From: a virus
Reading direction: 5' to 3' (one strand)
Length of the DNA stretch: 37,662 nt
Virus record (IMG/VR): IMGVR_UViG_3300009095_000035
Span: 1-37,662 of that record
Shown: piece after piece, positions 11,681 to 35,001 of the stretch
Position numbering within the stretch: position 1 is the first letter of the stretch
Layout: each line of letters opens with the position of its first letter
Program-made: the position numbers and the translations under genes
The notes under the pieces: generated by a model
Told to the model about the DNA's origin: nothing
Databases searched by the model: none
What the model saw: the letters and a program-made list of their open reading frames with translations, nothing else

Positions 11681-11690
11681 AAAAATCACC

Positions 11691-16394: not shown

Positions 16395-18020
16395 CTAGTA
16401 TTCAACCTGCACGTCGTGCACGCCCGCATCTGGGCGCCAATCGTCACGCCGAGTCTCTGTCGGTTTCCCGACTATTCGGCCGATGCGAACAGGGGTAGAG
16501 CTGATTGCGCCGGCGCCGGAGTCGATGTAGTCATCGTCCTGATTGGTGAGCGCAGGGTTGAAGTCGCGCATCTGGTCCCAGATGGTGTGCAGCACGTCGA
16601 CGTGAGCCCACAGAAACCGCGCAGACAGGGGGGACTCGAAGGCGTCAAGAATGCGTTTCTGCTTGTTGGTGCTGGAGTGTTCTTCCCCTACCCCGCACCC
16701 TGTGCCCTTCAGCGCCTGCTTGAGGATTGAGGGAGCGAACCCGCCCGGCCCGTTGGTCTCAATGATCACGCGGGGGATCTGGAACTTGACCACCAGCTCA
16801 CGGATTTGATGCACCTGGCCACCGGTGATCCGATCCCGTTCATCGAACTCAGCAATTTCTCCCTCAAGGCCTGCCGCGACGTGCCAGTAGAGTTGTCCAC
16901 GCGCGTCAGTCAGCAGCAGCGAAAAGGCAGAGGCGTCCGATTTGATCTTGCCCAGCGAGCAGTCCCAGTAAGCGACGGCGCCGACGATCTGCGTGGCGCC
17001 CAAGAACATAGCGGCTGCGCCGTTGGCATAGCGCATGGTGGGTTGAACGTTATAGGGGATGATGCGCGCAGGGTCCAAACGAACCTCCGTGACGGGCTTT
17101 GAGTGGAGCTGGTACTGCGAATCCCATTCGTTGATGGTTTTGGTTTCTTTGCGGCGCTGGGCCAGCTCTTCCATGTTGAAGCGTTCAGGCCAGGCGCTGC
17201 CGGCGTAGCAGTCCACAAGCGTTCCAGGAGGGGCGAAGAACGCAATGCCGGTCTTTGTCAGCTGGTAGTCAGTTCCCAGCACCAGCACCCGCGCATGCTT
17301 GCCGATACCGGAAAACACCACGTCCGGCACGAAAGGCAGATCGTAAGCATTGAGCTTTGCCTCGGTAATCCGGTGTTCCTGGGCAAACATGCGGATGGTC
17401 AGGCAGTCGGCGCCAAGTGATTCAATCTCGTCGTAGAGGCTGTCATGGGTGTGCGGGGTACCAATGAACAGGCGGTATGCTCCGGGCACCATGATGTGGA
17501 TCTGCTCCCCCAGGCGGTAGCGCATCTTCTCCCGCGCTTCCGGGGTAGCGATGTTGCCGGGCACCTCAACATCATCGTTCTGGCATTCGTCCGCGCGCGC
17601 AGAGGTGACGTTGGAGAGGATGCCCCGCGCGTACATGCTGGCGTTCCGGCTGTCCACGGCGCCATATACCCACCACGATTCGGTACCGGACTGCGCTGTG
17701 GCCAGCAGATGCCGGGTAAGCGGGTGGTTGCGGATAACGTTCTGCGTGTCGCGACTGGTCTTGTACGCCGTTGGGTTAGATTCCGACTGGTGCAGGATTC
17801 GATAGGTGGGGTCTTTGTAGTAGCGCCAGGCGTTGTACACGGCCAGCAAAGTCGACTTACCAAACCCTCGAAAACAGCGCAGCACCGCGAGACGATCGCG
17901 GTGCTCCAGCCAATAAAGCGCACGGACGTGAATGTCCGGCACCTCCCACCGCATGCGCTTCGCCCAAATCAGGAAAAAGACCAGCAGCGATACTTTCGGT
18001 GACTCTTGGTCAGTGGACAT
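16395..18020 (-). CDS. terL: Terminase large subunit
   Basis: 541 aa with Walker A CFRGFGKST. T7 gp19-like position after TerS, with an 11-nt overlap with the TerS gene. Confidence 0.85.
   Translation of the reverse strand: MSTDQESPKVSLLVFFLIWAKRMRWEVPDIHVRALYWLEHRDRLAVLRCFRGFGKSTLLAVYNAWRYYKDPTYRILHQSESNPTAYKTSRDTQNVIRNHPLTRHLLATAQSGTESWWVYGAVDSRNASMYARGILSNVTSARADECQNDDVEVPGNIATPEAREKMRYRLGEQIHIMVPGAYRLFIGTPHTHDSLYDEIESLGADCLTIRMFAQEHRITEAKLNAYDLPFVPDVVFSGIGKHARVLVLGTDYQLTKTGIAFFAPPGTLVDCYAGSAWPERFNMEELAQRRKETKTINEWDSQYQLHSKPVTEVRLDPARIIPYNVQPTMRYANGAAAMFLGATQIVGAVAYWDCSLGKIKSDASAFSLLLTDARGQLYWHVAAGLEGEIAEFDERDRITGGQVHQIRELVVKFQIPRVIIETNGPGGFAPSILKQALKGTGCGVGEEHSSTNKQKRILDAFESPLSARFLWAHVDVLHTIWDQMRDFNPALTNQDDDYIDSGAGAISSTPVRIGRIVGKPTETRRDDWRPDAGVHDVQVEY
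16458..16477 (-). promoter_or_regulatory. Late element copy 5 (inside the 3' end of terL, about 90 nt upstream of the tailspike start)
   Basis: Plus strand TGTCGGTTTCCCGACTATTC. Sense strand GAATAGTCGG-GAAA-CCGACA. Confidence 0.6.
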
Positions 18021-18348
18021 TGGCGCCCTTGCTCGCCCGCTCCAGCAGCGCCATGGCCTGGGATTCGGCCTGCCTTACCTCGTCGTCCAGTTCTTTGGCT
18101 GGGTCGTCTGTGCCGCCGTCGGCGCCGTTGCGTGCCAGCATGCCGGTAATGCTCATCACCTTGACCAGCAACGTCATGGTGGCGGCTGCGTTCTTCTTCG
18201 ACCAATAACGGTTGCCCCGCTCTTCCTGGGTCAGTTCGGCGGCGGTCTTGCCAGCGCCTGGCCAAGTCGATGTATCAGCCTCGCTGATCACCACGTCGGC
18301 CAAGCCTTCGGACAGAACCTGCATTTTGGCTATCTGATCCAATCGCAT
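18010..18348 (-). CDS. Terminase small subunit (by position)
   Basis: 112 aa starting at the ATG at 18348, which is ATGA-coupled to the upstream ejection-protein gene. It overlaps the terL start. Same order as T7 gp18 then gp19. Confidence 0.55.
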   Translation of the reverse strand: MRLDQIAKMQVLSEGLADVVISEADTSTWPGAGKTAAELTQEERGNRYWSKKNAAATMTLLVKVMSITGMLARNGADGGTDDPAKELDDEVRQAESQAMALLERASKGANVH

Positions 18349-20888
18349 CACTTCACCCCCACGGCAGCGCCAAGATTTGGGGCGCGATCTGGCGTTGTGT
18401 CGCCCGGCTCCCACCAGTACGACTGTTTAAATTCCTTGCGGGCGCGTTGCTTCATGCGGCGCAGGTAGCCCGGTGAGAAGTAATCCTGCAGTTGGTTGAA
18501 GATCAGGTGATCGGTGGCGGCCTTGGTGTACCAGAGGTTCGCGCCGGGTAAATGGCTCTTGGCCAGGCGCACCAGCTTGCCGCCGGTTTGGTTGACCTCG
18601 CCGTCTGCGGCGTTGTCTTTCAATTTGAAGATCGATTCCACGTCGCCAGCGATGGGGCCACCCAGGGCCGCAAGCGGAGAGCTGCCGCCCTGCGATGTGT
18701 CGGAGAACAGGAAGTCGCCGTAGAGGCCCATGGCGCCACCCTTGAGGAAGGAGGCCAGCCCGAAGCGCAAGCCGGGAACGCCCCATTTCTTATCATCGGT
18801 GATGTCCTTCGGATCGCGCCCGGATGCAATCTCGCCAAGCTGGATTGCCATGCCCCCCAGCACGGTGGTGGACGCAACCAAGGCAGCCAGATAGCCAGCC
18901 TTGCCCCAGCCTTCCTGGGCCATGCCGCGCGCGCCGTGGCGCATGATCATGCCAATGGAGAAGCTTTTGAACTGCCAGAACGAGCGCACAAGCTCACCCT
19001 TGACGGTGCCGCGCTCAACGCCGCCATGCATCATTGCCTTCTCGCGGGAACCCGGTTCAATGATCGCCATGTTGGTCTCATCCAGCACGGTGCCCAGCAG
19101 CTTGGTGGCGGCCTGATCCTTGAGGCGCTGCGGGGTTGTCTTGAGTTGCTGAGCGAGTTGCACCAGGTCAGCGTTGGGGATCCGGTAGATGCTGTTCGCG
19201 GTCAACACGGTGTCGCCCACGCCGCGCCAGTCTTCCGGCTGGGCCATGCGCCAAACAGACCAGTCCGTCTCGGTTACGCCCTGCCCCATCAAACGCTTGC
19301 TGTCGGCCGGGTCCATGGCTGACAGGGAGTCATGCCGACGGGACATATCGCCGATGGTGTCCAGCATGGTGGCGCCGAACGCGCGCTGGGAACCTGCGGT
19401 CAAGGCGTTGAGGCCGGACGCCTGCATGACCTTGCTGGCAGCGGTCTGGGAGAACTTGGCGATACGGCCCGCGATTTGCTCATTCGTTCCCAAGCCATCG
19501 GCACCAAAGCGGTTCAGGCTGCCAATCAGTTGGTTCAGGCCCAGGCCCGCGCGCTGCGCCAAACGTCGATCAGCAGCGCTGGCTGGGTTAAGCATGCGTA
19601 TCTCGTTGGCAAACACCTTCATCACCGGCATACCGTTCATGGACGCGGTAAGGCCCAGCGTTCCCTGGTCGGTGACCGAAGTCAGGACGGCGGACCCCAG
19701 GCGGCTGGCAACGTTGAGCGCGCGGTACGTGTCGAAGCCGTTGGCCAGGGCGGCAGACACCGGCGGCTCACGCGTGCCGGCGACTTCCTCAAACAGATGC
19801 TCAACCTTGCGGCGCTGTTTGGCGGTCTTGACGGAATCGGTCGGCCGGGCCGTGTCGGTTGCCTTCTGCCCTGCATCCAGGAAGTAACGCATTTGGTTGC
19901 TGGGGTTGGGGCCCAGCGTTTCCACCAGAGCAATATCCCGCGATGCCCGGTCAATATGGCCGATCAGCAGTTCCAGCAAGTTGCGGTCGCCGTACGACTT
20001 CTGTGCCGCGATAAAACTTTCGGCGTCCTTGTAGTGGATCTGGCGTGACTCGCTCCCACGATTCGCACGCATGCCGTTGCCTGCGGCCTGGCCTGGCTCC
20101 AGCTTGTTGGTGCCACCGGTGGCCAACGTCGTCCAGGCATGCCCGAGAAAGTCGGTGAGCTCGGCGTCATTCATCGGCGTACCGTCTTCCTTGAGGTACT
20201 TGCTACGGTTCGCCCACTGCATATGGTCGGCCACCCACTTGGCCTGATCCCTGGCAACCTTCACTTGCGAGTGGTCGCGCGGCATAGACCAGTCATCCAG
20301 GAAGCCCACGTCGCCGCCGGCGCGGTTGAATCGCTGGCGCAGTTGCTCAGCAGTGTCCTTGAACTGTTTGGCGGCGGTCTTGGCGACCGCGTTGCCGGAG
20401 TCCTCTCCATGCAGCTCGCGCACCAGGGCCAAGTTGCCGGCCTCATCTTGAAACAGGCCCAGGAACTTGCCTTTGGTTTGGTCGATCACGTCAAGCATGC
20501 GGCTGACGGAGTCGTCGCGGATCGCGCGTGTAGCCGATTCAATGGACTGGATGCCGCTCTTGCCGTCGCTGGAGAACGCCAACAGTCGGTCGAGCCCCTC
20601 AAGTGGGCGATCCGGAAAGCGCTGCATGTAGCTGTCGATGCGGTCATGGGCAAGGATGGTCAGCGCCACGCGCTTTTTCTTGAGGTCAGCTTCGGCCACC
20701 AGATCCTTGGCGGACTTGGCAGCGGCTTCGTTCAGTCGGTCGGCGGCGGTCTTGGATTGCCAGGTGTTATCGGTCTGCGCCAGTTGCTTCATGTTGCGGC
20801 GCACGCGGTTCTCGATGCCCTGGATTTCCTGCTGGTTGAGGGAACGGCCGATGGCCTGGGTGACGGCTTGGATGCATTCGGGGCGCAT
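18348..20888 (-). CDS. Internal virion / DNA-ejection protein (gp16-like position, 846 aa)
   Basis: Large ORF in the ejectosome block. The C-terminal part has Gly-rich hydrophobic helices (GYLAALVASTTVLGGMAIQLGEI). Confidence 0.65.
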   Translation of the reverse strand: MRPECIQAVTQAIGRSLNQQEIQGIENRVRRNMKQLAQTDNTWQSKTAADRLNEAAAKSAKDLVAEADLKKKRVALTILAHDRIDSYMQRFPDRPLEGLDRLLAFSSDGKSGIQSIESATRAIRDDSVSRMLDVIDQTKGKFLGLFQDEAGNLALVRELHGEDSGNAVAKTAAKQFKDTAEQLRQRFNRAGGDVGFLDDWSMPRDHSQVKVARDQAKWVADHMQWANRSKYLKEDGTPMNDAELTDFLGHAWTTLATGGTNKLEPGQAAGNGMRANRGSESRQIHYKDAESFIAAQKSYGDRNLLELLIGHIDRASRDIALVETLGPNPSNQMRYFLDAGQKATDTARPTDSVKTAKQRRKVEHLFEEVAGTREPPVSAALANGFDTYRALNVASRLGSAVLTSVTDQGTLGLTASMNGMPVMKVFANEIRMLNPASAADRRLAQRAGLGLNQLIGSLNRFGADGLGTNEQIAGRIAKFSQTAASKVMQASGLNALTAGSQRAFGATMLDTIGDMSRRHDSLSAMDPADSKRLMGQGVTETDWSVWRMAQPEDWRGVGDTVLTANSIYRIPNADLVQLAQQLKTTPQRLKDQAATKLLGTVLDETNMAIIEPGSREKAMMHGGVERGTVKGELVRSFWQFKSFSIGMIMRHGARGMAQEGWGKAGYLAALVASTTVLGGMAIQLGEIASGRDPKDITDDKKWGVPGLRFGLASFLKGGAMGLYGDFLFSDTSQGGSSPLAALGGPIAGDVESIFKLKDNAADGEVNQTGGKLVRLAKSHLPGANLWYTKAATDHLIFNQLQDYFSPGYLRRMKQRARKEFKQSYWWEPGDTTPDRAPNLGAAVGVK

Positions 20889-20889
20889 G

Positions 20890-20919
20890 GGCTTGCTCCT
20901 GATTGGATGGGAGCAAGCC
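20890..20919 (-). promoter_or_regulatory. 10-bp hairpin sequestering the Shine-Dalgarno sequence of the 846-aa gene
   Basis: Sense strand GGCTTGCTCC-CATCCAATCA-GGAGCAAGCC-CATG. The GGAG of the ribosome-binding site forms the 3' arm of the stem. Confidence 0.55.
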
Positions 20920-20933
20920 TATGGTTCAGCGGT

Positions 20934-20953
20934 AGACGGTTTCCCGACTATTT
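20934..20953 (-). promoter_or_regulatory. Late element copy 4 (overlaps the stop of the 640-aa gene)
   Basis: Plus strand AGACGGTTTCCCGACTATTT. Sense strand AAATAGTCGG-GAAA-CCGTCT, with two substitutions in the distal stem arm. Confidence 0.55.
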
Positions 20954-22874
20954 AGAGACCGCGTTGCAGGAAGCAAGCGGCAGCAGCGGCGAAGCCTTTG
21001 GCGTCCTGCTGAGCCCTGACTATATCGGCGTCGGTACTGGCGAGCAGTTCCCGGGCTGACACGGTGATGGGGTTGCCGTCGGCGTCCATGGCGCCGGTGG
21101 AAATGCGCATGTCCTCGATGCGGGATAGGATTTCGTCAGCAACCTGCACAACCGGGTCGGCGGCGGAAGATTCGCCGGCAGACTGTGTTGCATCTTTTGG
21201 GGTGGATGTTGCATTTTCCGGCGCCGATGTAACGGTTTTGGCCTGTTGTGTCGCATTTTTTCCGGGCTTTGTTGCATCAGAGACCGCTTTTGTCGCATCG
21301 AGTGGCCGGCCGATATCCAGTGGTTTGGCCTGCAGCGTCGGATCGGCGCGCTCAATGTCGTCAAGGATGCGGGTGATTTCCTGGCGCGCGATCTGGGCGA
21401 TGGACAACTTGGTATTGGCCTCGGCTACACCGGCAGACAGGGGGTTCTTATCGAAGCCATTAACGATGCTGTCGGCGCGCTGGCTGATGCGGTCTTGAAA
21501 GCGCTGCGGCACTTCACCACGGTCCATGGCATTCAAGTCTGCACGGGCTTGCTCGGCACTGCGATTACCGCCCAAGGCTTCGTTGAGTGATGCCTGCCGG
21601 TCGGACAGGTCCAAGCGCTCCGCCTCAATTGCCTGGCGTGCGGACGACTCGGCCTGTTTGCGGCCCTGCCCCTGCTGCTGGAATTCCTTGGCGCGAGCCT
21701 TGAACGTGTCGTCCAGCGCCGCAAGGTTTTGCGCCACGGTAGATAGTTCGGCCTTCACATCCTTGACGTTCGGCAAGATGCCGGCGGCTTCCTGCTCCAG
21801 TTCGACGCGCAACTTTGGCTCAAGGTCTTGGCGGGCGGTTGCTAAGGCCACATCGGGCGCAGGCTTCATTGTGGGAGCGGGATCAGCCTCGCGCAGGAAC
21901 TTTGCCGAATGGATGCTATCCGGCAGCACGATTGGCTCGCCGCGCTGCAGTTGATCGATAACCGTGCGGATAGCATCCTGGTGGGCCACGGCGGACTTTG
22001 GATCGATCGGCGCGCCTGGCGCGGTGTCGATATCGGCATGTTGATTGGTGCGCTCAGTGAGTGCCGCGTCGACCTGCCTTGTTGTCGGGCGACGGAAGTT
22101 GGCGCGGCCAAGACCGAAGAAAGCCAGGCCCATGATCGCGTCCGTGGCGAGCGCGGTGCCGTCCATGACTTTGTACTGTGCTGCCTGACTGTGATAGCCA
22201 TTGCTCTCCAGCAGCGCTGCGGTAGCGCCGCGACCAGCCATGCCCAGGCCGACGTTGGCACCGACAGCGGCGGCGGCATCGCCCAGGATCGGCTTGACGA
22301 TTCTGGCGGCGGGCAGAACAACCCCAAGGCCAACCGTTGCAGCATCAATCAGCCCCTTTTTGGTCGCGGTGGATTCGTCCAAGCCTTCGGCAACGCCCAC
22401 CTGCTTGCTGGAAAATCCAGCAGGGGCACCAGCAGCCAGTGCCGCACCGACCGGGCCGGCAGCAACCGCGCCAGCAACGGTGCGCGGCAAGACCGCCGCG
22501 GCTTCGCCCAGGATCTGCCCGACCAGGCCAACCTCTGTCGGGTCTGGTCGTAAGTCCATGACCGACTTGGCGGTTGCCTCGCCGATGTCGCGCGCCTGGG
22601 TCTCGCGGAACTGCTGCTGATCTGCCAGCTGCCCATCATCAGGGCCGTATGACGAACCAATGGCCAGGTCAGATTCAACCGCCAGGCTGCCGAGTTGTAG
22701 CGCCGTGGACTGAACGGTGCGCCCGCCCTCGATGGCGCCACGCAGCAGGTTAGGGCCAATGGTGCTAAGCGAGCCGGTAAACACGCCAGGCGCGAGCTTG
22801 TCGGCTGTTCGGTCAAGGCGCTGGTCCTGACTGCGCGCCTCATTGTCCTCGATCATCCCGTCTAGCCAGCTCAT
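20952..22874 (-). CDS. Internal virion / ejection protein (640 aa)
   Basis: The N-terminal third is Ala/Gly-rich with hydrophobic helices. A central coiled coil follows, and a degenerate (D/N)AT(K/Q/S) repeat lies near the C-terminus. Overlaps the upstream gene by 4 nt. Confidence 0.65.
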   Translation of the reverse strand: MSWLDGMIEDNEARSQDQRLDRTADKLAPGVFTGSLSTIGPNLLRGAIEGGRTVQSTALQLGSLAVESDLAIGSSYGPDDGQLADQQQFRETQARDIGEATAKSVMDLRPDPTEVGLVGQILGEAAAVLPRTVAGAVAAGPVGAALAAGAPAGFSSKQVGVAEGLDESTATKKGLIDAATVGLGVVLPAARIVKPILGDAAAAVGANVGLGMAGRGATAALLESNGYHSQAAQYKVMDGTALATDAIMGLAFFGLGRANFRRPTTRQVDAALTERTNQHADIDTAPGAPIDPKSAVAHQDAIRTVIDQLQRGEPIVLPDSIHSAKFLREADPAPTMKPAPDVALATARQDLEPKLRVELEQEAAGILPNVKDVKAELSTVAQNLAALDDTFKARAKEFQQQGQGRKQAESSARQAIEAERLDLSDRQASLNEALGGNRSAEQARADLNAMDRGEVPQRFQDRISQRADSIVNGFDKNPLSAGVAEANTKLSIAQIARQEITRILDDIERADPTLQAKPLDIGRPLDATKAVSDATKPGKNATQQAKTVTSAPENATSTPKDATQSAGESSAADPVVQVADEILSRIEDMRISTGAMDADGNPITVSARELLASTDADIVRAQQDAKGFAAAAACFLQRGL

Positions 22875-24889
22875 TTTACGATCACCATGATGGGTTTCTG
22901 GGTGTCCGGATCGATCTGCACCCGGCCGGCGTTCAGCAGATAATACGAACCTTCCTTGCCCGGTACTGGTGACAGTGGCATGTCCTCCAGCTGGCTCACC
23001 GGGATTTTGCTGGTCTTGGCCATGCCATCGATCTGCATGTCTACGGACTTGTTGAAGGCGTCGTCATCCATGCCGTACGGTTTGATCACCTTGGCGCCCG
23101 CGCGCTCGGCAACGCCGCCGGTGGCCATGTCGAACGCGGACTGGGATGTCTTGCTATCGAGGTCATCGCCGTCTTCATACTTCACGCCTTTCGATGCGGC
23201 GGAACCTGCATACAAGGACTTGAACGCCAGATAGGCCTGCTCGCGCTGGGGCGTGCCTGGCACCAGAGACGCGCCCGCGTGCTCGTCGAAGGCGTCACGG
23301 AAGAACTTGTCTTTTGGCAGCGGTACCGACTTATCAGCCAACACCTTGGCGCCGGCCAGCAGCGTACGGGGAACGTCCGTGCCATCGGCGCCCTTGAGGC
23401 TGCGGAACTGCGCCATGCCCGCCAGCGTAACGATGGGGTCATCAGCCACCAGCGGCTTGATGGCAGCTGCGTAGTCGGCACCGGACGGAGAGGAGCCAGC
23501 GATAGCGCCGAACAGCTGCAGCTTGGTGCTGTCGTCGGCCTGTTTGATAAGCGATGACAGCATGGCCTGTTCTTCGGGCTTCCATGGGTTGCGGGCAACC
23601 TCAGGGCCGTACGCCTTTCGCACCGAGTTGACCACGTCGAAGCGTTCGGCTATCTGCTCGCCCAACTTCTGCTGGCCCTCGGTGCTGGTGATGCCAGAAA
23701 CGTCCAACGGCGCCACATCGGCGCCGGTTCGCATTGCGTTGAAGCTGAGCGGGTTCTCTCGCATCATCTTCGTGTTGTTGTCCACGGCGGTCTGCAAACG
23801 GTTCAGGTTGGCTTGCTCGGCTACGCTGGCGCCGTTTGACTGCGCTTGCTGGCGCTGCCGGTCAATGAACTGCTGCGCAACCGCTGGCGGCTGCCGTAGG
23901 AGGCCCTGCACCTGATTCATTTCCTGCATGCGGGTATTGAACTCGCCGGCAGCCGAGGTGCCAGACAGCGCAGATTTCCAGCGCTGCTGGTCAGCTGGGG
24001 TTGGGGGCACGCCGGTGGAGGCTTGGCGATCCATCTGTGTCAGGATGCGCTCGGCCTTCATTTCGCGCATTTCGGCCTGGCGCTGCTGGTGTTCCTTCAC
24101 CTGGAAGATGCGGCCGCTCACAGTGTTGAGTAGCTGGTTACGCTTCTCTGGGTCCAGCTTTCTGGCGTAGAAACCGTCCTCGGCAGTGAGGTCATGCTCA
24201 AGCTTTTGCAGGCTACCCACGCTTTCTCGCGCCTCAATAACTCGCTGGGTTGCGTGCGTAGTCCAGTTGCCGTCCTTGAATTCCTGCTTCTTGTGGGCCC
24301 AGGTCTCACCAAATGCCAGGCGCCCAGCAACGTCGATATCCTCGGCGTCCATGCGCGCATTGATTTGATCAACGTTCGCGCCGGGCATTGCGGCGTCTTT
24401 GCCCAGCATGTCCATGCGCGAGGTCAAATCGCTCTGCGCCGACTGTATACGCCCCTTGGCGGCCGATGCACGGATGCTATCCAAGCCGCCCAGCTGGATG
24501 CGTTTGAGCGAATTACCTATCTCGCCCTGTTGGGCCTCATCAAGGCCGGGAGTCTGCAGAGGGTCAAGCTTCGATACTGCGCTGGTGAAGGCCTCCTCGG
24601 ACTTTTCGTAAGGCAGCTGCCCCGTGCGCATCTTCTCGTCCAGGTCCGTGGCGATGGTCTTGATTTGCGACTCGCGGTCGATAAGCGCGTTGCTGGCCTT
24701 CACCCTGGCCAACGCCTGATCTTCCTTGTTGATGTTGTCCAGCACGCCCAGCGCGGCGTTCTGAATGGTGCTGGCCGCCTGTTGAGCGGCCTGGGCCTGA
24801 CCACGATTGTCCACAGTGATGACGCGGCTCTGTGGTGCCTCGGGCAGCACGCGGGTTTGCGCGAAAGCGCCAAGCGGAATCTGTGCCAT
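22871..24889 (-). CDS. Internal virion protein (gp15-like position, 672 aa)
   Basis: Large helical ORF. TAATG-coupled to the upstream gene. Confidence 0.65.
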   Translation of the reverse strand: MAQIPLGAFAQTRVLPEAPQSRVITVDNRGQAQAAQQAASTIQNAALGVLDNINKEDQALARVKASNALIDRESQIKTIATDLDEKMRTGQLPYEKSEEAFTSAVSKLDPLQTPGLDEAQQGEIGNSLKRIQLGGLDSIRASAAKGRIQSAQSDLTSRMDMLGKDAAMPGANVDQINARMDAEDIDVAGRLAFGETWAHKKQEFKDGNWTTHATQRVIEARESVGSLQKLEHDLTAEDGFYARKLDPEKRNQLLNTVSGRIFQVKEHQQRQAEMREMKAERILTQMDRQASTGVPPTPADQQRWKSALSGTSAAGEFNTRMQEMNQVQGLLRQPPAVAQQFIDRQRQQAQSNGASVAEQANLNRLQTAVDNNTKMMRENPLSFNAMRTGADVAPLDVSGITSTEGQQKLGEQIAERFDVVNSVRKAYGPEVARNPWKPEEQAMLSSLIKQADDSTKLQLFGAIAGSSPSGADYAAAIKPLVADDPIVTLAGMAQFRSLKGADGTDVPRTLLAGAKVLADKSVPLPKDKFFRDAFDEHAGASLVPGTPQREQAYLAFKSLYAGSAASKGVKYEDGDDLDSKTSQSAFDMATGGVAERAGAKVIKPYGMDDDAFNKSVDMQIDGMAKTSKIPVSQLEDMPLSPVPGKEGSYYLLNAGRVQIDPDTQKPIMVIVK

Positions 24890-25416: not shown

Positions 25417-25418
25417 GA

Positions 25419-25862: not shown

Positions 25863-25871
25863 GGTGGCACC

Positions 25872-28609: not shown

Positions 28610-28620
28610 TCCCAACCTCC

Positions 28621-28651
28621 AGATAAAAAGACCGGGGCACTGGGCCCCGGT
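28621..28651 (-). terminator. Intrinsic terminator after the capsid gene pair (T-phi-like position)
   Basis: Sense strand ACCGGGGC-CCAGT-GCCCCGGT followed by CTTTTTAT, 33 nt after the stop at 28684. Confidence 0.75.
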
Positions 28652-28683
28652 AAGTTATTTGCCATCCTTGGCGGCCCGTGAAA

Positions 28684-29208
28684 TCAGTTGCCGTCGATGT
28701 ATTGCAACTTCAGGCTGACAGTCCCGGCGCCAGTTGCGGCGGCGGTGAGGGTGACGGCCACGTCGTATTGCTTGCCTGGATCAGCAGCAAGACCTAGCGC
28801 CTGCCACAGAGGTTTCTCGATGTCTGCCAAACCGAAGCCTGCGCCAGCGTCTGCCGCGTCCGCTTCGTGGGTCACGTCCTGGTTGATGAGCGCAGAAGTG
28901 AGCGCTTGAGCAGAGGCGAAGAAGTCAACGTCAACCACTGCGCCAGCGTTAACGGCGAGCACGTCGTACAGACCGATATCGCCAACAGCGGTGGTGATCG
29001 CATCGCAAGACAGCAGCAGGCGGGAAACGCGATCCACCGAGTTGATGCGCATCAGGCGATACACAGAACCGATAGAGTCGGCGGCGCCGGCCTCGACAAA
29101 GCCGACACGCTCACGCAGGCGGCCACCGTCGATACGCTGCGGAGACAGGGTTTGTGGGAGGGCGTCGGAGTTGGTGACCGCCGTCGATTTGAGAGTTACT
29201 ACAGCCAT
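28684..29208 (-). CDS. Hypothetical structural protein following the capsid gene (decoration or minor capsid candidate)
   Basis: 174-aa ORF lying between the capsid gene and a terminator. No motif recognised. Confidence 0.55.
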   Translation of the reverse strand: MAVVTLKSTAVTNSDALPQTLSPQRIDGGRLRERVGFVEAGAADSIGSVYRLMRINSVDRVSRLLLSCDAITTAVGDIGLYDVLAVNAGAVVDVDFFASAQALTSALINQDVTHEADAADAGAGFGLADIEKPLWQALGLAADPGKQYDVAVTLTAAATGAGTVSLKLQYIDGN

Positions 29209-29249
29209 GATTGTTGCTCCTGATAAGATGGGAGAAGGCCAAAAGCCGC

Positions 29250-30116
29250 TTACGCGGCTTCGGTTACAGAGATTTCAACAACCTTCTCTTCTTCCACCCG
29301 CACGGAGCCGATGGACATTTTTCCGTAGATACGGACGTTGAAGCCTTTGCCTGGATCCTCGCCAACCTTGGTGACGATATCGGCACCCTTGCCGAGGGTT
29401 ACACCCGACTTGGCCCAGGCGTAGAGCCTGCGGGTAGAACCGTCATACGGGGTGCGCTCGGACGGAATCCAGGTGAAGCCCATCCACTTGCCTTCCACAT
29501 CGCCGCTCTCGAGGAACTTGCCAGCCATGTAGTCCGCACTGGTCAAGGTCGCATCGGCGAGGATGTCGGCAGCCGCCTGCGCGCTATAGGTGATGCACAG
29601 CTCTTCACCGTTGTGATTGTCCGCCTCGTTTTTGCGGAACAGCTTGCGGGCCTGAATGATCTTGGCCTTGGTCAAACCGGTGCCGCCCACGGCGATCTTC
29701 TGAACGGTTGGCAGGATGATGTTGCCGGTGGTGGAACGGGAGAACCCGCCCATGCTGGCAATGATCACGTCGTCTTTGGCGCGGTTCAGCGAACTGACCA
29801 TGGCTTTGACGTAGTCCGAAGTCGGATCAACCAACATGCGGATCTTGTCCTGGTCGTCGAGCATGTCGCCGTCTTCCCAGTCGAACAGATCCACAAAGCG
29901 CGTGCTGTGTGGCTGATCGTTGATCGGGGTGTCGCCATGGCGAGTGGTGCGGCGCTTGGCAGTACGTTGACCAAGACGGTTGATCGACTTGGACATACCA
30001 ACGATGTTTGGCTCGATGGTCACATGACCTTCAAGGCGGGAGGTCATTTGCTGCGCCAGGTGACGGAAGTTATCGCCGTACTGCTGGACAAAGGCTTCTG
30101 TGATTTGAAAGGACAT
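29250..30116 (-). CDS. Major capsid protein
   Basis: Start at the internal ATG at 30116 (MSFQITEAFVQQYGDNFRHLAQQM...) preceded by GGAG. 288 aa, directly after the scaffold gene. Confidence 0.7.
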   Translation of the reverse strand: MSFQITEAFVQQYGDNFRHLAQQMTSRLEGHVTIEPNIVGMSKSINRLGQRTAKRRTTRHGDTPINDQPHSTRFVDLFDWEDGDMLDDQDKIRMLVDPTSDYVKAMVSSLNRAKDDVIIASMGGFSRSTTGNIILPTVQKIAVGGTGLTKAKIIQARKLFRKNEADNHNGEELCITYSAQAAADILADATLTSADYMAGKFLESGDVEGKWMGFTWIPSERTPYDGSTRRLYAWAKSGVTLGKGADIVTKVGEDPGKGFNVRIYGKMSIGSVRVEEEKVVEISVTEAA

Positions 30117-30282
30117 TCGATGCACTCCAATGCAGATAAGGGATTGCCTTCCGGTTGTCCGCTTTGCGGGCCGGCATTCCTGGCGTGCATCGGCTTTGCT
30201 GCGCCTGGGGCGTTCCGGTTGTCTGCATGCCATCGCAGGCCGGCCCATTGCTGGGATGCCTGCGATGTTTGTGCATGGGGGG

Positions 30283-30302
30283 TGTCGGTTTCCCGACTAT
30301 TT
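30283..30302 (-). promoter_or_regulatory. Late element copy 3 (between the scaffold and capsid genes)
   Basis: Plus strand TGTCGGTTTCCCGACTATTT. Sense strand AAATAGTCGG-GAAA-CCGACA. Confidence 0.6.
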
Positions 30303-30312
30303 GACGCGGGGA

Positions 30313-31155
30313 TCAGCCAAGGCGGGGTTGCTTGTTGTACTTGCGGTCGTAGAGCGCATCCAGTTGAGCCTGAATGCCCGGGCGCTTAGCGTCATGTGCC
30401 GGCAAATCCTGCAGCTGCTGACGCAGTTCGGCCGTCTTCACAGCAAAATCGCCCTCGCTGGCCGGGCCGCCGCCGTTGATGGCGCTGTCTTCCTTGAGTT
30501 CCTTGCCGATGTTGGCGGTGAAGGCGATGAAGTCGGGATCCTTCCCGAACTTACGATTCAATGCCTCGTAACTGCCAAGCCCTTGTTCATTGGCGAAGGT
30601 AGACGACGCCAGATAGGAGGCGCGCACGTTCTGGCTCATTGCCTTGTCGTCGGTCCATACGGCTTTCAGCGCATCGGTGCAACCCTGCAAGTCGAGTGTT
30701 TCAGCACCACCAACCAAGGCAGGCGCCGCCTTCATGTATTCGCCGATGACGTACTGCACCTGGTCATTGGTCAGGCCTTTGGCGTGGGCGCCCTTCAGGA
30801 ACGATTGGGTGCCCTCGTCGACCTTGAACTCATCCCAGTTAAAGCCCTCGACGCCCTCCAGCTTGACCGCGTATTCCTCGGGAGTCTTGGGCGGAACATC
30901 GCCGGAACCAAAGCGGGTTTCGAGGTGCTTGTACGCTTCGGCAACCTTGCGGCTCGATGCTTCCTGGTCAAGGCTGCCGTCCTCTTTCATGACGCGGAGC
31001 TTTTCGGGAATGTAGTCGGTGCCGGTGTTGCCACTGTCCAGCACAGAGCTGGTGGGCGCAGGTGCAGCAGGTGCTGCCGGTGTGGATGGGTCGCCACCCT
31101 CGCCCGCTTCGGCCATAAAAAAATGGCCCATCCGGCCATGGATAAACATGTTCAT
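30313..31155 (-). CDS. Scaffolding protein (by position and composition)
   Basis: 280 aa, acidic and helical, between portal and capsid. GAGGAA lies 5 nt upstream of the start. Confidence 0.6.
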   Translation of the reverse strand: MNMFIHGRMGHFFMAEAGEGGDPSTPAAPAAPAPTSSVLDSGNTGTDYIPEKLRVMKEDGSLDQEASSRKVAEAYKHLETRFGSGDVPPKTPEEYAVKLEGVEGFNWDEFKVDEGTQSFLKGAHAKGLTNDQVQYVIGEYMKAAPALVGGAETLDLQGCTDALKAVWTDDKAMSQNVRASYLASSTFANEQGLGSYEALNRKFGKDPDFIAFTANIGKELKEDSAINGGGPASEGDFAVKTAELRQQLQDLPAHDAKRPGIQAQLDALYDRKYNKQPRLG

Positions 31156-31157
31156 CG

Positions 31158-31403
31158 TTATTCCTCTTGTTCGTTGGGATCGGCTTGGACGCCGTTGGCA
31201 CGGTTGATACGGTTAACAACGTGGTCGAGGACTTCACGGGCCCCGGCCTGTTTGTACGTGGTGAGGATTGCGTCGATACCGCCGACGGTGCAGGCGTTCT
31301 TGGCGAAGCGCTGCACCAGTAGGTCCAGACACATGGCGCCTTCGTGGTGCTCCTCGAATACGCGCTTGAACATCGCGTCGATCTGTTCCGGGGTCATGGT
31401 CAT
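31158..31403 (-). CDS. Hypothetical protein (81 aa)
   Basis: ATGA-coupled to the portal gene. Confidence 0.55.
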   Translation of the reverse strand: MTMTPEQIDAMFKRVFEEHHEGAMCLDLLVQRFAKNACTVGGIDAILTTYKQAGAREVLDHVVNRINRANGVQADPNEQEE

Positions 31404-32995
31404 GCGGCGGCTCCCTGCTGTTTCATTGCGGCTTCACCGGCCTGCTGCATCATTGCTTGCTGCTGTTCCTGCTCCATGGCGGCCTGTTGAGCCTGGGCAC
31501 GGTCGGCGCGGATCTTGTCCCGATCGGCAGAGCTGCGGATGACGGACCCAGGCACGCCCAAGGCTTCACCCTTGAAGCGCTGAGCCTCGTCCATGTCGAT
31601 GTTGTCCATGACGGTTGGATCGGTCGCAGCGATGATCAGAGCGCCCTGGATGAACGTATCAATGGCTGTCACCTCTTCCAGCTTCTGGGAGCGGGCCAGC
31701 GGCGAAAGGTAGCGTACGGTGAAGTTGCGACCGGCCAACGACTCAGGCGCAGCGCCCAGCACACCAGCGCGGTAAGCGATGCCGAAGCAACGCTCAATCA
31801 TCGGTTGCAGGTACTCGGTTTGCAGCCGGCCATACACCGGGCCCAGCAACTGACGAATCAGGTTCACGCGTACATGCACCTCGGTGGCGGTCATCGTCGG
31901 CCCGTCCTGGGCCTGGAGCTGATCGGCCATCAGGATCTTGCGGATGGAGCCTTGCAAACGAGCAATCTTCGTTTCCGCGTACTGGAAGTTTGAGCCGCTT
32001 TGCAGTGGCTTCATGCTGTCCACGGAGTTGGCCACGATGATCTTGCGCGGGCCAACCTTGACCGTGCGCGGGTTCAACACGCCGTCGTCCTCGGCAATCC
32101 ACATGCCAGCGATGGCCAGGTCGCCGGCTGCCAGGTCCATCCGGCACAGTTCGTTCAGTGTGCGCGCGTCCGGCAAGGCGTCGAACACAGGGCCAACCGC
32201 ATACACGCTGTCAGGGATCATCATCCAGCGCGGAACAACCACCGGCATTTCGTGGTAGCCCGACTCGCTCACCATCAGCTTGGCTTCCACCTCGACCTTG
32301 CACGAAGCCACAGGCATGTTCTTCGCCAGCTTGGCGTCAACCATGTGCGTGGTGCGTGGGTAGATCGCGTGGACGAAGCGAACCATTTCCTGTGGCTTGT
32401 CCTTCGCCAGCTTGCGGGTGTTGTCGCTGACATTCTGTTCGCCGAACTCGTTTACTGCCTGCTCGGCCGTCAGCTTGTACTCGCGATACACGGTGTCGAT
32501 CTTGCCACCGGCCTTGGACGCCGAGGCGTACACGCTCGCGATGGGCCACAGATCGAACGTGAAGCCGCCCTTCTCCATGTCCTGATCGATGTAGAGGGCA
32601 AACCATCCAGCACACACAACGTCAATCAGCCCCTCAAAGGCGGCCGCGTCGAAGTTGGATGCGTGGATGTTCTGCCAAAGGATGTCGGCCGAGTCATCCA
32701 GCCAGCGGCGCTCGTCCTCGGTTTCCTGCCCCACGTCCATGCCGAACCACAGTGAGTTGGCGGGGGTCAGTCCCGACATGATCCCGGACGACAGAATCCG
32801 TGCCGCGTCCGTGGTGGTGCCGTCGATCATCCTTGCTTTGCGCATCTGCGCTTCGATGGCGGTGATTTGCTCAGTGCAAAAGCCACTACCCCGAATCGGG
32901 TAGCTGTGGTCGAAGCAATCGCGCCAGACCGTCTCATGCGGCGAGCGGAGAGACTTCAAGGTGCTCAGCGTTTTGGCGATCTGGGATGCGTTCAT
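31400..32995 (-). CDS. Portal (head-to-tail connector, podovirus type)
   Basis: 531 aa (T7 gp8 is 536 aa). The N-terminus is ...LKSLRSPHETVWRDCFDHSYPIRG.... Its position is upstream of the scaffold and capsid genes. Confidence 0.8.
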   Translation of the reverse strand: MNASQIAKTLSTLKSLRSPHETVWRDCFDHSYPIRGSGFCTEQITAIEAQMRKARMIDGTTTDAARILSSGIMSGLTPANSLWFGMDVGQETEDERRWLDDSADILWQNIHASNFDAAAFEGLIDVVCAGWFALYIDQDMEKGGFTFDLWPIASVYASASKAGGKIDTVYREYKLTAEQAVNEFGEQNVSDNTRKLAKDKPQEMVRFVHAIYPRTTHMVDAKLAKNMPVASCKVEVEAKLMVSESGYHEMPVVVPRWMMIPDSVYAVGPVFDALPDARTLNELCRMDLAAGDLAIAGMWIAEDDGVLNPRTVKVGPRKIIVANSVDSMKPLQSGSNFQYAETKIARLQGSIRKILMADQLQAQDGPTMTATEVHVRVNLIRQLLGPVYGRLQTEYLQPMIERCFGIAYRAGVLGAAPESLAGRNFTVRYLSPLARSQKLEEVTAIDTFIQGALIIAATDPTVMDNIDMDEAQRFKGEALGVPGSVIRSSADRDKIRADRAQAQQAAMEQEQQQAMMQQAGEAAMKQQGAAA

Positions 32996-33195
32996 GATCC
33001 GAGGGTTCTCTTTCCTTGATCGAGGACGCTGCCCGCTGCACCGCCAGTCGAAAGCAAACTGCTTTCAGCCTTGCGCTTCTTGCGAGTGGCGGTTTCTTCG
33101 TTGGCCTTTTGGGCTGCCAGGTCGGCGGCCTTCTGCGCTTCGACCTGCGGGTCTGGCGCGGCAACGGTCTTGGGCTTGCTTGGCTTGCTTCCCAT
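32992..33195 (-). CDS. Small basic virion protein, T7 gp6.7-like (tentative)
   Basis: 67 aa. MGSKPSKPKTVAAPDP...SSLLSTGGAAG resembles T7 gp6.7 in its N-terminus (MCFSPKIKTPK...) and in position. ATGA-coupled to the portal gene. Confidence 0.5.
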   Translation of the reverse strand: MGSKPSKPKTVAAPDPQVEAQKAADLAAQKANEETATRKKRKAESSLLSTGGAAGSVLDQGKRTLGS

Positions 33196-33199
33196 GTCG

Positions 33200-33643
33200 T
33201 TACCCCTTGGCTACTGGCTCAGGGCACAGCCAGCCGTCAGGTGTCATGACTGCTTGCTTGAGCGTGGTGGCGTCGATGTCGCCGGTGTTGGCCTTGGCCT
33301 GTGGCGCCGGCTCGTTGATTCGCTGCGGGTCAAGTACCAGGGGCTCGCCACCAGTGTTCAGACGGTCAGCTTCGGCCAGGGCTTCATCCTTGGTGCCGGT
33401 GAAGTCGCCAACCTTCACGGCCTTACCCTCCAGCAGCGCGGCGTTTTCGTCGATGACGATCCAGCGCGGGCCGCCGTTGTGCTTGGCAACGAACAGCGCA
33501 GGCTTGGGCGCCTGGGCGTTAGCCGTGTCTAACTCGCTGGCGTTGGGATTGCCGGTGTTGGCGTCAGTGATGGCACTGGCAAGCGGCGTGATGGTGGCGA
33601 GCGGTTCGCCTGGTGTCTGCGGGGTAAGGTCTGGAGCTGGCAT
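33200..33643 (-). CDS. Hypothetical protein (147 aa)
   Basis: ATG at 33643, 8 nt after GAGG, is preferred over the TTG at 33673. Confidence 0.5.
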   Translation of the reverse strand: MPAPDLTPQTPGEPLATITPLASAITDANTGNPNASELDTANAQAPKPALFVAKHNGGPRWIVIDENAALLEGKAVKVGDFTGTKDEALAEADRLNTGGEPLVLDPQRINEPAPQAKANTGDIDATTLKQAVMTPDGWLCPEPVAKG

Positions 33644-33699
33644 TGGGCTGGCCTCGGGTTGGTTGTTGATCAACGAGGGCCAGAATCAATGGGGTGGGC

Positions 33700-33719
33700 T
33701 GTCGGGTTCCCGACTATTT
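33700..33719 (-). promoter_or_regulatory. Late element copy 2 (overlaps the Rz stop codon)
   Basis: Plus strand TGTCGGGTTCCCGACTATTT. Sense strand AAATAGTCGG-GAAC-CCGACA. Confidence 0.6.
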
Positions 33720-34163
33720 GCGAGGGAGGCAGGTGGCGTTGACCCAATCAATCAGGCTGTTCAAGGCGATGATTGCTTCGTCTCCGTCATTGGCGATGGC
33801 GACAATTCGTTGACCAGCCGCTGGGTCAAGTTCTGCGCGCGCTTCTGCATCATCCACGCGGCCGGGGCTTGCGCTGGCTCGCACGACGGGGCACTTGGCT
33901 GGGACTGACAGCCGCTGAGTGCCAGTGCCAACACGAGCAAGAAGGGCTTTGTTCTGGGCTTGAGCATCGGTGAGTACCTTGGTGTTGTCGGTGTCGAGCT
34001 GGGTCAGCAGCTTCTGGGTGGTCTTGCGTGATGCGTTGGCAGCCTCCAGCACGCCTACACGCTCCGTTGCGGTGTCCAGGCCTGTGCTGATGTGGTCAAG
34101 ACGCCAGAGCGACAGCAGCAGGCCAATGGCGAGCGCAGCGCAGATGCCGAGAAGGATCTTCAC
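33714..34163 (-). CDS. Rz-like i-spanin
   Basis: GTG at 34163 overlaps the endolysin stop (GTGA) and is preceded by GAGG. N-terminal TM helix KILLGICAALAIGLLLSLW followed by a coiled coil. The track start at 34178 is also possible. Confidence 0.75.
   Translation of the reverse strand: MKILLGICAALAIGLLLSLWRLDHISTGLDTATERVGVLEAANASRKTTQKLLTQLDTDNTKVLTDAQAQNKALLARVGTGTQRLSVPAKCPVVRASASPGRVDDAEARAELDPAAGQRIVAIANDGDEAIIALNSLIDWVNATCLPRK
33761..33967 (-). CDS. Rz1-like o-spanin lipoprotein, embedded in Rz in another frame
   Basis: MLKPRTKPFLLVLALALSGC carries a lipobox (LSGC). The mature part is Pro-rich. The ORF lies entirely inside the Rz-like gene. Confidence 0.7.
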   Translation of the reverse strand: MLKPRTKPFLLVLALALSGCQSQPSAPSCEPAQAPAAWMMQKRAQNLTQRLVNELSPSPMTETKQSSP

Positions 34164-34630
34164 AACCCCACCTCGCACAACTCACGCTCAGCAGCGCGGC
34201 GATTGACCAGGCCTTGCAGCTTCTGGCCCTGGGCGTACACCCAGCGGCTCAGCTCAGCACAGGCGCCGCGTGTGTCACCGGTATTGAGCTTGCGCAACAG
34301 GGTGGATGCCTTGAACTGGGACTCGCCGACGTTGTAGACGAACGATGCCAGGGCGGCGCGGCGGGTCTCGGGCTGCGGTCGAGTGACGTTGCGGTCAACG
34401 CCGGTCATGGCGATGGTGAGTTCTTGCTGCAACAGCGCATCACACTGCGCCGGGGTCTTGCTCTGGCCCAGGCGCACACCACGGGTAACGCCTTCGCAGA
34501 TGGTGGGAATGCCAACGGGGTCGAGGTAGGCCACCAGTGACCGGCCTTCGAAGTGGGTGACCAGCACACCGGCCATGCTGGCGGCGCCGGCGAGTGAGAC
34601 GGCGAGGATTCGTTGCTTGAGGGGGCTCAC
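34160..34630 (-). CDS. SAR endolysin (GH24 T4-lysozyme family)
   Basis: FEGRSLVAYLDPVGIPT gives the E-x8-D-x5-T catalytic triad. The N-terminal Gly/Ala-rich signal-arrest-release helix is ILAVSLAGAASMAGVLV. Confidence 0.85.
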   Translation of the reverse strand: MSPLKQRILAVSLAGAASMAGVLVTHFEGRSLVAYLDPVGIPTICEGVTRGVRLGQSKTPAQCDALLQQELTIAMTGVDRNVTRPQPETRRAALASFVYNVGESQFKASTLLRKLNTGDTRGACAELSRWVYAQGQKLQGLVNRRAAERELCEVGL

Positions 34631-34905
34631 GATCTGGCACGCTCACGCAGCGCTTCAATGCGTGCGGCGCTCTCGACTGACTCGCGATGATCCTTGCGCC
34701 ACTGGAAATACACGTTGATCACCAGGCCCAAGACTGCGACCGCTACACCGGTGATCCCTATCCAGTTGACCTGGGACAGCCAACCCACCAAACCAACAGC
34801 GCCGCCCGTGAGCATTCCTTTGCTCGCGACTGATGCGCCGACTACCTCAACGATGCTCTCCGGCGCAGGGTTGGCCATGCTGTTACTCCTGACTGGATGC
34901 TTCAT
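34627..34905 (-). CDS. Holin (two TM helices, pinholin-like)
   Basis: 92 aa with possible dual starts (M1 and M10). TM helices GMLTGGAVGLVGWLSQV and WIGITGVAVAVLGLVINVYF, with a charged C-terminus. Its stop overlaps the endolysin GTG. Confidence 0.7.
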   Translation of the reverse strand: MKHPVRSNSMANPAPESIVEVVGASVASKGMLTGGAVGLVGWLSQVNWIGITGVAVAVLGLVINVYFQWRKDHRESVESAARIEALRERARS

Positions 34906-34920
34906 GTCGCCTCCAGGGTC

Positions 34921-34951
34921 AAAAAAAAGCCCAGCGCGAGTTGGCTGGGCT
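34921..34951 (-). terminator. Strong intrinsic terminator 16 nt upstream of the holin start (tR'-like)
   Basis: Sense strand AGCCCAGC-CAACTCGC-GCTGGGCT followed by a T run (eight A on the plus strand at 34921-34928). It lies between late element copy 1 and the holin ribosome-binding site. Confidence 0.8.
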
Positions 34952-34981
34952 GCGATGACCGTAAGAGTCGTCGGGGTCAGG

Positions 34982-35001
34982 TGTCGGAATCCCGACTATT
35001 T
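34982..35001 (-). promoter_or_regulatory. Late element copy 1 (abuts the stop of the HTH gene, upstream of the lysis cassette)
   Basis: Plus strand TGTCGGAATCCCGACTATTT. Sense strand AAATAGTCGG-GATT-CCGACA. Confidence 0.6.

Follow-up and report, generated by a model that had tools for sequence, protein, structure and literature searches.

Five co-oriented copies of a 20-nt element head the late-gene blocks of the virus in IMG/VR record IMGVR_UViG_3300009095_000035, positions 1 to 37,662 of which were analysed (hereafter the window). PHROGs and Pfam scans of its open reading frames (ORFs) identify this virus as a temperate podovirus with lambda-like regulatory genes. The 20-mers are probably the upstream halves of five activator-dependent late promoters (P1 to P5), which would be used by the host RNA polymerase together with a phage protein, i.e., a known kind of control exerted by a new protein family. 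The likely candidate for this protein is an 86-aa helix-turn-helix (HTH) protein of the XRE type, whose gene ends within the first copy. The element itself is real and strongly selected, and the promoter reading is held more firmly than the assignment of the 86-aa protein as its activator.

The 20-mer and its conservation

A search of the whole window for GTCGGNNNCCCGACTATT with up to two mismatches returned exactly five matches, all on the plus strand (at 16459, 20935, 30284, 33701, and 34983), for a chance expectation of 0.05; none of 100 shuffled sequences attained five. At this stringency there is no copy on the opposite strand or in the early half of the window, and looser half-pattern searches of the window gave no extra degenerate copies. 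A preliminary description of this DNA had reported the same five co-oriented copies and their absence from the early half and from the other orientation, and in both respects it was right. Read on the sense (minus) strand, the copies follow (A/G)AATAGTCGGGA(A/T)(A/C/T)CCG(A/T)C(A/T). The sequences listed earlier, with putative tetraloops GAAA (three copies), GAAC, and GAUU, are accurate, and the only mismatch in the proposed stem is found in copy 4. Three copies, and not two as first counted, overlap a stop codon that ends the gene before them, namely TGA for the 86-aa gene (copy 1), TAG for Rz (copy 2), and TAA for the 640-aa gene (copy 4). Copy 5 is embedded in terL, where it encodes GRIVGKPTE, as had been noted. 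The likely start codons follow the motif at about 45 to 170 nt, so that the earlier range of 30-170 nt holds at its upper end but not at its lower end.

Megablast of the late region found no close DNA relative among GenBank phages, and relatives were therefore reached via protein searches. A search with the 86-aa protein yielded 87 loci (seven Pseudomonas prophage loci and 80 IMG/VR loci), while a TerL-anchored set of 80 further loci covered the other end of the late region. Both sets were searched with a motif-core pattern at up to three mismatches, and removal of duplicates left 173 and 117 distinct extended sites, respectively. All 199 matches in the first set are co-oriented with the gene for the 86-aa homolog, and the 142 matches in the second set are co-oriented as well, with none on the other strand in either set (341/341). 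Three motif positions recur in the 86-aa-anchored loci, namely behind the regulator gene, behind the lysis genes, and in front of the capsid gene; the TerL-anchored loci keep P4 and P5, including the copy in terL. The earlier interpretation was to be abandoned if the motif proved absent or randomly placed in relatives, and it is instead present at the same positions in a single orientation. An exact-pattern scan of IMG/VR for the motif mostly returned the same contigs, and its single matches in unrelated contigs were about as frequent as chance predicts for 15 specified bases; these single matches were left aside.

Variants of the motif shift jointly within a genome. Loci L067-L077 have AAAGG in place of AATAG at every site, and Yersinia phage YeP4 uses CCGAA. 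Such concerted variation is as expected from one shared trans-acting reader. YeP4 belongs to the sequenced phages nearest to the window by portal protein (Yersinia phages YeP4-6, 60% identity) and has six copies of TAGTCGGGAAACCGAA, i.e., (T/A)TAGTC(G/A)GGAAACCGAA. Their positions match those in the window: one copy each heads the lysis genes, the portal block, and terS, two precede the capsid gene, and one lies in the 3' end of terL ahead of the tail fibre gene. The element within terL encodes G(R/K)(I/L)VGKP(T/N)E in the window (16458-16477) and in YeP4 (L001, 34935-34955).

A -10-like hexamer at a fixed distance

In all five copies of the window, the hexamer at positions 13-18 after the motif, i.e., 12 nt past the element, has the form nAnnnT: GACTCT, GATTCT, AAACAT, TAGGCT, and GACGAT. 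The second-position A and the sixth-position T are the most important positions of the -10 hexamer of sigma-70-family promoters. Among the distinct sites of the two sets of relatives, this A is kept in 170/173 and 116/117 (286/290 in total) and this T in 169/173 and 116/117 (285/290). Since the search pattern comprised the motif core alone, and not the hexamer, its conservation constitutes an independent signal. The spacing between motif and hexamer is 12 nt, or 11 nt in a few sites, while the sequence of this spacer, that upstream of the motif, and that past the hexamer are all variable in the aligned relatives. About 7-8 nt past the hexamer, CA or CAT is common, which is a typical context for transcription start. 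The sense-strand layout is thus AAATAGTCGGGA(A/T)NCCGACA, N12, nAnnnT, and a predicted start some 7-8 nt further on, often at CA. After N12, the YeP4 copies have TAAAAT, CACACT, TAGCCT, TAATTT, GACCAT, and GACCAT, and several of the hexamers in this AT-richer phage plainly read as ordinary -10 hexamers.

With the hexamer set at -12 to -7, the 20-mer would extend from about -44 to about -25, and its GTCGG-N4-CCGAC dyad would be centred at about -32.5, where a canonical -35 hexamer has its midpoint. At the -35 position, the window copies read GGAAAC, GGAACC, or GGATTC, unlike TTGACA. Neither a -35 consensus nor a TG extension (-15/-14) is present in the aligned sites, and nothing is conserved upstream of the motif; the host holoenzyme alone should therefore be unable to use these promoters. 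The preliminary description had correctly seen no -35-like hexamer upstream of the motif, but had overlooked the -10 downstream and the fact that the -35 position is taken up by the motif itself. The conserved asymmetric AAATA, at about -44 to -40, would coincide with the position of a proximal UP element, judging from established promoter knowledge. Ordinary sigma-70-like promoter matches are scarcer in the late region than in shuffled sequence (1 versus 5.8). As in activator-dependent late promoters of the sigma-70 type, a -10 is found at a fixed distance, -35 and extended -10 elements are lacking, and several co-oriented copies head late operons. One of the options first considered for the element, a late promoter read by the host polymerase plus a phage factor, is supported by this fixed-distance -10 without a -35, by the position before every late block and the co-orientation, and by co-occurrence with the HTH gene.

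The 86-aa protein as candidate activator

The window and YeP4 have wholly unlike early regions, that of YeP4 encoding its own DNA polymerase, primase, and helicase. A comparison of all their ORFs showed that they have in common the structural genes, the lysis genes, the integrase, and the 86-aa protein (46% identity), the latter being the only regulator common to both. In YeP4, its gene sits directly upstream of the putative portal-block promoter. Among the relatives, the gap between the regulator gene and the first motif often ranges from stop codon overlap to 30 nt; it extends up to about 1 kb in others and is 1.6 kb in one locus. The association holds for distant family members, since in hosts of 45% and 70% GC the motif and its -10 are still found right after the gene.

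The AlphaFold model of the protein (predicted local distance difference test, pLDDT, 86) has an XRE/Cro-C1 HTH fold. Its top structural matches are small dimeric regulators, such as HipB, SinR, P22 c2, and the controller proteins of restriction-modification systems, all of them weak (E 0.05-0.3), and structure searches with the model gave no more than the generic XRE fold. A sequence search of the family against the PDB returned marginal HTH matches only (E 0.03 or worse). The protein has no match above cut-off in Pfam, none in NCBIfam, and only a generic 'repressor' family in PHROGs, which leaves it outside the Mor/C, Ogr/Delta, Lpa, and RinA/ArpU activator families; its own family has no Pfam or NCBIfam model. 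All 80 of its 80 close homologs are annotated as 'hypothetical' and are devoid of a Pfam domain, and a profile search with the family reached 1052 representative clusters (50% identity) at E <= 0.001.

Alcaligenes phage Piluca and Acinetobacter phage TPWB-05 also encode a family member after RusA, but with a different recognition helix, and their upstream element differs too (CACCCAACAAACCCCAAC), lying again 11 nt from an nAnnnT hexamer. A simple correlation of recognition helix with motif variant proved uninformative, as the helix is too conserved among motif-bearing phages and only the Piluca/TPWB-05 branch differs in both. In Piluca (L092), the recurring element reads CACCCAACAAA(C)CCCAAC, then 11 nt and nAnnnT, and it is also found in L080 at ~10895. 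The Piluca sites (~1-65, 4800-4915, 19440-19524, and 24180-24260) stand directly before terS, the holin gene, orf35, and the tail knob gene, and are nested in terminator-like hairpins with T-runs, the -10 being in the hairpin loop. In such a nested layout, the terminator would halt upstream transcripts and the nested promoter would restart transcription.

In the mechanism that we propose, a phage protein, most likely a dimer of the 86-aa protein, would bind the 20-mer and recruit or position the host polymerase. The late genes would then be switched on as this protein, the last product of the early operon, accumulates, the five promoters driving the lysis genes, the portal-scaffold block, the capsid genes, the block of virion protein and terminase genes, and the tailspike gene.

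Several points weigh against activator-dependent promoters read by this protein. Promoter activity and start sites are predictions. Many of the aligned sites are orthologous, so that the counts given above suggest more independent events than there are. In the Pseudomonas phages, the hexamer mostly begins with G and not T, making it a weak match to the sigma-70 consensus, and another sigma may be used. In four loci of non-podovirus context (L056, L063, L064, and L065), a close homolog with the same recognition helix is encoded but the motif is missing within 10 kb; L080, L291, and L292 (GC 37-38%) have family members but no clear motif. Lastly, a plain activator model leaves unexplained how the lysis genes are transcribed past the terminator that follows P1. 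As a separate observation, the homologs in L056, L063, L064 (~10240-10320), and L065 (~9100-9150) are followed by GTCAC repeats instead of the 20-mer, three in each locus (four in L056) and 8-11 bp apart.

Terminators and a possible Q-like function

The P1 terminator (Table 1) is present in 39 distinct P1 sites preceding a holin gene, and its pairing is kept via C-G to A-U and G-C to A-U changes, compensatory at two of seven pairs. Predicted P1 transcripts would include the entire hairpin, and the lysis genes have no other promoter. Such a promoter-then-terminator order is unusual for a plain activator system. Read-through from P1 may represent a deliberately small fraction that attenuates lysis-gene expression; or, by analogy with lambda Q, pR', and tR', the polymerase started at P1 may be resistant to the terminator. 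No such terminator is found in relatives in which the portal block directly follows the first promoter, and the attenuator idea hence fits somewhat better than terminator resistance. A second terminator on the late strand is not followed by any motif copy ahead of the tail genes, which must thus be expressed by read-through. This resembles the arrangement in T7, with its terminator after capsid gene 10.

These terminators bear on an alternative that we consider unlikely, in which a factor loaded at the 20-mer, be it the 86-aa protein or another, would act like lambda Q to render the polymerase terminator-resistant, possibly in addition to activating it, the copies being repeated loading sites. 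The 86-aa gene does occupy the place of Q, between RusA and the lysis genes, and the succession of P1, a strong conserved terminator with compensatory changes, and the holin gene mirrors the pR'-tR'-S arrangement of lambda. The absence of another promoter for the lysis genes, and the terminator after the capsid genes with no motif copy before the tail genes, go in the same direction. On the other hand, the protein has an XRE fold and no Q-family domain, and Q-dependent transcription starts from strong, constitutive sigma-70 promoters that possess a -35, whereas no -35 is found here; of the features of lambdoid Q systems, the terminator between promoter and lysis genes is present. By inspection, no conserved -10-like pause hexamer was seen in the first 25 transcribed nt of the P1 sites. 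Terminator resistance acquired at P1 would furthermore make the four other promoters largely redundant, and the absence of the terminator where the first promoter leads to the portal block indicates that it goes with the lysis genes and not with the switch. The preliminary description had proposed, among other options, a loading site for an antiterminator: as an RNA site this is not supported (see below), whereas a Q-like version acting at the DNA level is retained as a rival, since a conserved terminator follows copy 1. Both functions could also be combined, and there is a small chance that the 86-aa protein is a minimal promoter-loaded regulator that replaces -35 recognition and also drives read-through of the P1 and post-capsid terminators. 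Such a regulator would perform a task like that of Q with an unrelated fold not half as large as any Q protein, and it would be widespread, with more than 1000 clusters at 50% identity. An action of the family on termination, if true, would be the more surprising result.

Other inverted repeats are found on the minus strand at P4 (20890-20919), P3 (30231-30267), and P2 (33650-33681), in each case with the 5' arm over the -10/discriminator and ending at the predicted start. The hairpins would therefore form only in read-through RNA, and not in RNA begun at that promoter. In the P4 and P2 repeats, the 3' arm includes the ribosome-binding site (GGAG and GAGG), and translation of the first gene of the block may thereby vary with the promoter from which the RNA originates. 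The hairpin at P3 is conserved and has double changes at four pairs.

Other explanations of the element

An alternative sigma factor, either of the host (extracytoplasmic function (ECF)-like or other) or encoded by the phage and unrecognised, could read GGGAAAC as a -35 and GAYnCT as a -10 without involvement of the 86-aa protein. The spacing of 17 nt between the central GGAAAC and the hexamer is similar to that of the ECF layout GGAAC-N16/17-CGT, and the hexamer often starts with G and not T. We nevertheless deem this improbable, somewhat more so than a Q-like function. Within the core, conservation is lowest at the AAC positions (A/T, then A/C/T), while the flanking half-sites and the AAATA leader are nearly invariant, which does not correspond to an ECF promoter, and no sigma-like ORF or sigma gene was found in the window. 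Moreover, the motif is common to phages of Yersinia, Pseudomonas, and other hosts of 45-70% GC, and its concerted change points to a reader encoded by the phage; the YeP4 hexamers, for their part, resemble ordinary sigma-70 -10 elements. FliA, RpoN, RpoH, and RpoS promoters were rejected by inspection against their consensus sequences.

The preliminary description had presented the 20-mer as a hairpin, with RNA processing or stability among its possible roles. An RNA hairpin with a GNRA-like tetraloop, serving as a processing site, a stability element, or a boxB/nut-like antiterminator site, is very improbable in light of the sequences of relatives. It is true that the consensus is able to fold as a 5-bp stem closing a GAAA loop, and that every copy lies in or borders a leader region. 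However, when the five proposed stem pairs were counted over 43 distinct core variants, no compensatory change was found, whereas 23 of 215 stem cells were broken, and the covariation score of the stem was no better than the shuffled mean. The unpaired cells result from G-to-A changes in the 5' arm against an invariant C, and from A-to-C/T or C-to-A changes in the 3' arm against an invariant T or G. Conversely, the 'loop' bases G and A are invariant in 290/290 sites, although stem positions vary. True RNA hairpins of the same loci, i.e., the P1 terminator and the P3 hairpin, do show compensatory changes, and Rfam had no matching family at gathering thresholds. Finally, with a predicted start ~25 nt downstream, the 20-mer would be outside of the RNA that it heads. 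The notion of a hairpin element did not survive this test of stem covariation, and the dyad is best read as a DNA site.

Least credible of all is a promoter for a phage single-subunit RNA polymerase, of the T7 type or of the N4 type with its DNA hairpin, which would be a highly divergent enzyme concealed among the large virion proteins. In its favour, the structural module is T7-like, the copies stand where T7 has class III promoters, and the N4 virion RNA polymerase does recognise a small DNA hairpin (PMC4496689), but no ORF has a polymerase domain, the large ORFs match virion, tail, and internal-protein families, and the phage, which also lacks a DNA polymerase, looks fully host-dependent. 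The promoter layout is equally at odds with such enzymes. In place of a continuous block of ~23 bp including the start, as in T7-type promoters, these sites have a conserved block, then a variable spacer of 12 nt, and then a -10 of the sigma type, and the stems of N4-type promoters are maintained by pairing-preserving changes (PMC4496689), while pairing is not preserved in the 20-mer.

Comparison with known systems

If the 20-mers are activator-dependent promoters, the mechanism is closest, by analogy, to that of phage late promoters that lack a -35 and rely on one phage-encoded early protein. The late promoters of phage P1 have a -10 without a -35 and a conserved dyad element in its place, and the likeness extends to the existence of several such late operons under one early phage protein. 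The element of phage P1 differs in being a 9-bp inverted repeat near -22, compared with a 20-mer near -32.5 to -35 here, and its activator Lpa is described as binding RNA polymerase and requiring the host SspA, whereas the present candidate is an XRE-type HTH protein with no detectable similarity to any named family. Lpa and the late operons that it controls have been reported for phage P1 (PMC8198154).

With lambda cII and its promoters pRE, pI, and paQ, the window shares a small phage HTH protein, several putative promoters without a usable -35, and half-sites that straddle the -35 position. The cII site is TTGC-N6-TTGC, a geometry comparable to GTCGG-N4-CCGAC centred at about -32.5. Nevertheless, cII recognises direct repeats and acts at lysogeny promoters, not on late genes; in addition, the window has a separate cII-like gene, and the 86-aa protein has no cII-family match in PHROGs or Pfam. 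The controller (C) proteins of restriction-modification systems are small XRE dimers, which activate transcription from palindromes located at the -35 region, and C.BclI, C.EcoT38IS, C.AhdI, C.Esp1396I, and C.Kpn2I are among the best structural matches of the 86-aa model. The Foldseek E values are weak (0.05-0.3), however, no restriction-modification genes are found here, and C-boxes are autoregulatory and upstream of their own gene, while the present sites are downstream of the gene and ahead of late operons; the 86-aa protein is therefore not assigned to this group.

In Mu (C/Mor) and P2 (Ogr), one small phage activator likewise turns on about four late promoters with a poor -35. These activators belong to the Mor/C and zinc-finger Ogr families, unlike the XRE fold with no Pfam match seen here, and their sites are positioned differently, around -30 to -55 for Mu C and near -55 for Ogr. 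The T4 middle promoters, which depend on MotA and AsiA, have in common with the window a phage-specific box for the -35 and a conserved sigma-70 -10 (TAnnnT). MotA and AsiA are unrelated to the 86-aa protein and have no homologs here; T4 also remodels sigma region 4, a feature with no evident counterpart in this phage. As for lambda Q, its gene is also the last in the early right operon, after RusA and nin-type genes and before the lysis genes, and the order promoter-terminator-lysis genes is the same. The window differs by the absence of a Q-family protein and of a -35, by its five copies versus one, and by a terminator at ~6-38 nt from the predicted start, against ~194 nt in lambda.

Gene layout of the window

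The minus-strand gene order appears to run on from the start of the window to its end, suggesting circular permutation. Toward the window end, this strand encodes a replication initiator fragment, a P-like helicase loader, RusA, a 90-aa ORF, and the 86-aa HTH protein, followed by holin, endolysin, and Rz, and then by a structural module of the T7-like/HTVC010P-type podoviruses, comprising portal, scaffold, capsid, tail tubular proteins A and B, internal virion proteins, TerS, TerL, and tailspike. The 90-aa ORF between RusA and the HTH gene (35449-35721, minus strand) keeps its position in the Pseudomonas relatives; it is not found in YeP4 and has no family match. The longest ORF of the capsid gene begins at 30248, but the family match begins only at residue 45 and a GGAG-ATG is found near 30113, which is probably the true start codon and would leave a leader of ~145 nt after P3. 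That the genome lacks a recognisable RNA polymerase or sigma factor, as initially remarked, was upheld by searches of all window ORFs against Pfam, PHROGs, and NCBIfam, which did not detect a Q-type antiterminator domain either. The PHROGs and Pfam scans likewise revealed no DNA polymerase gene in the window, and the phage looks dependent on its host for both replication and transcription.

Table 1. Position of the predicted late promoters, terminators, and regulatory genes in the window
Feature	Coordinates	Strand	Remarks
P1 upstream element (AAATAGTCGGGATTCCGACA)	34982..35001	-	Overlaps stop of 86-aa HTH gene; ahead of lysis genes; same place in relatives
P1 -10-like hexamer GACTCT	34964..34969	-	Predicted start near 34956-34957 (CA)
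P2 upstream element	33700..33719	-	Contains Rz stop; ahead of block from 157-aa gene through portal to scaffold
P2 -10-like hexamer GATTCT	33682..33687	-	Predicted start near 33674
P3 upstream element	30283..30302	-	Ahead of major capsid gene
P3 -10-like hexamer AAACAT	30265..30270	-	Predicted start near 30257
P4 upstream element	20934..20953	-	One mismatch in 3' half; overlaps stop of 640-aa gene; precedes 846-aa virion protein, TerS, TerL
P4 -10-like hexamer TAGGCT	20916..20921	-	Predicted start near 20908
P5 upstream element	16458..16477	-	Within 3' end of terL; ahead of tailspike gene; same placement in YeP4
P5 -10-like hexamer GACGAT	16440..16445	-	Predicted start near 16432
P1 intrinsic terminator	34920..34951	-	8-bp GC-rich stem and T8; ~6 to 38 nt past predicted P1 start; upstream of holin gene
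Second late-strand intrinsic terminator	28622..28651	-	Palindrome and T-run; follows capsid and 174-aa genes
86-aa XRE-type HTH gene	35001..35261	-	Last gene of early rightward operon, after RusA (lambda Q position); candidate late activator
cI-type repressor gene	1054-1770	+	PHROGs/Pfam; then RecT, RecE, and exonuclease on same strand
Integrase gene	11610-12950	+	PHROGs/Pfam
cro-like gene	1000-776	-	PHROGs/Pfam
cII-like gene	774-466	-	PHROGs/Pfam

Significance for temperate podoviruses

Among the prophages of Pseudomonas and other Proteobacteria, temperate podoviruses that have a T7-like virion module but lack an RNA polymerase are common. No description of their late-gene switch was found in the literature: a search for the motif string gave no match, and a general search on late activators of temperate podoviruses gave nothing specific to this phage group. 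The present analysis offers a concrete two-part promoter, with five copies mapped to the base, and a named candidate activator from a large unannotated family. If the proposed activation is true, automatic annotation of late promoters and of their regulator would become feasible in hundreds of prophages, and the pair would provide a compact orthogonal activator-promoter system for Pseudomonas engineering.

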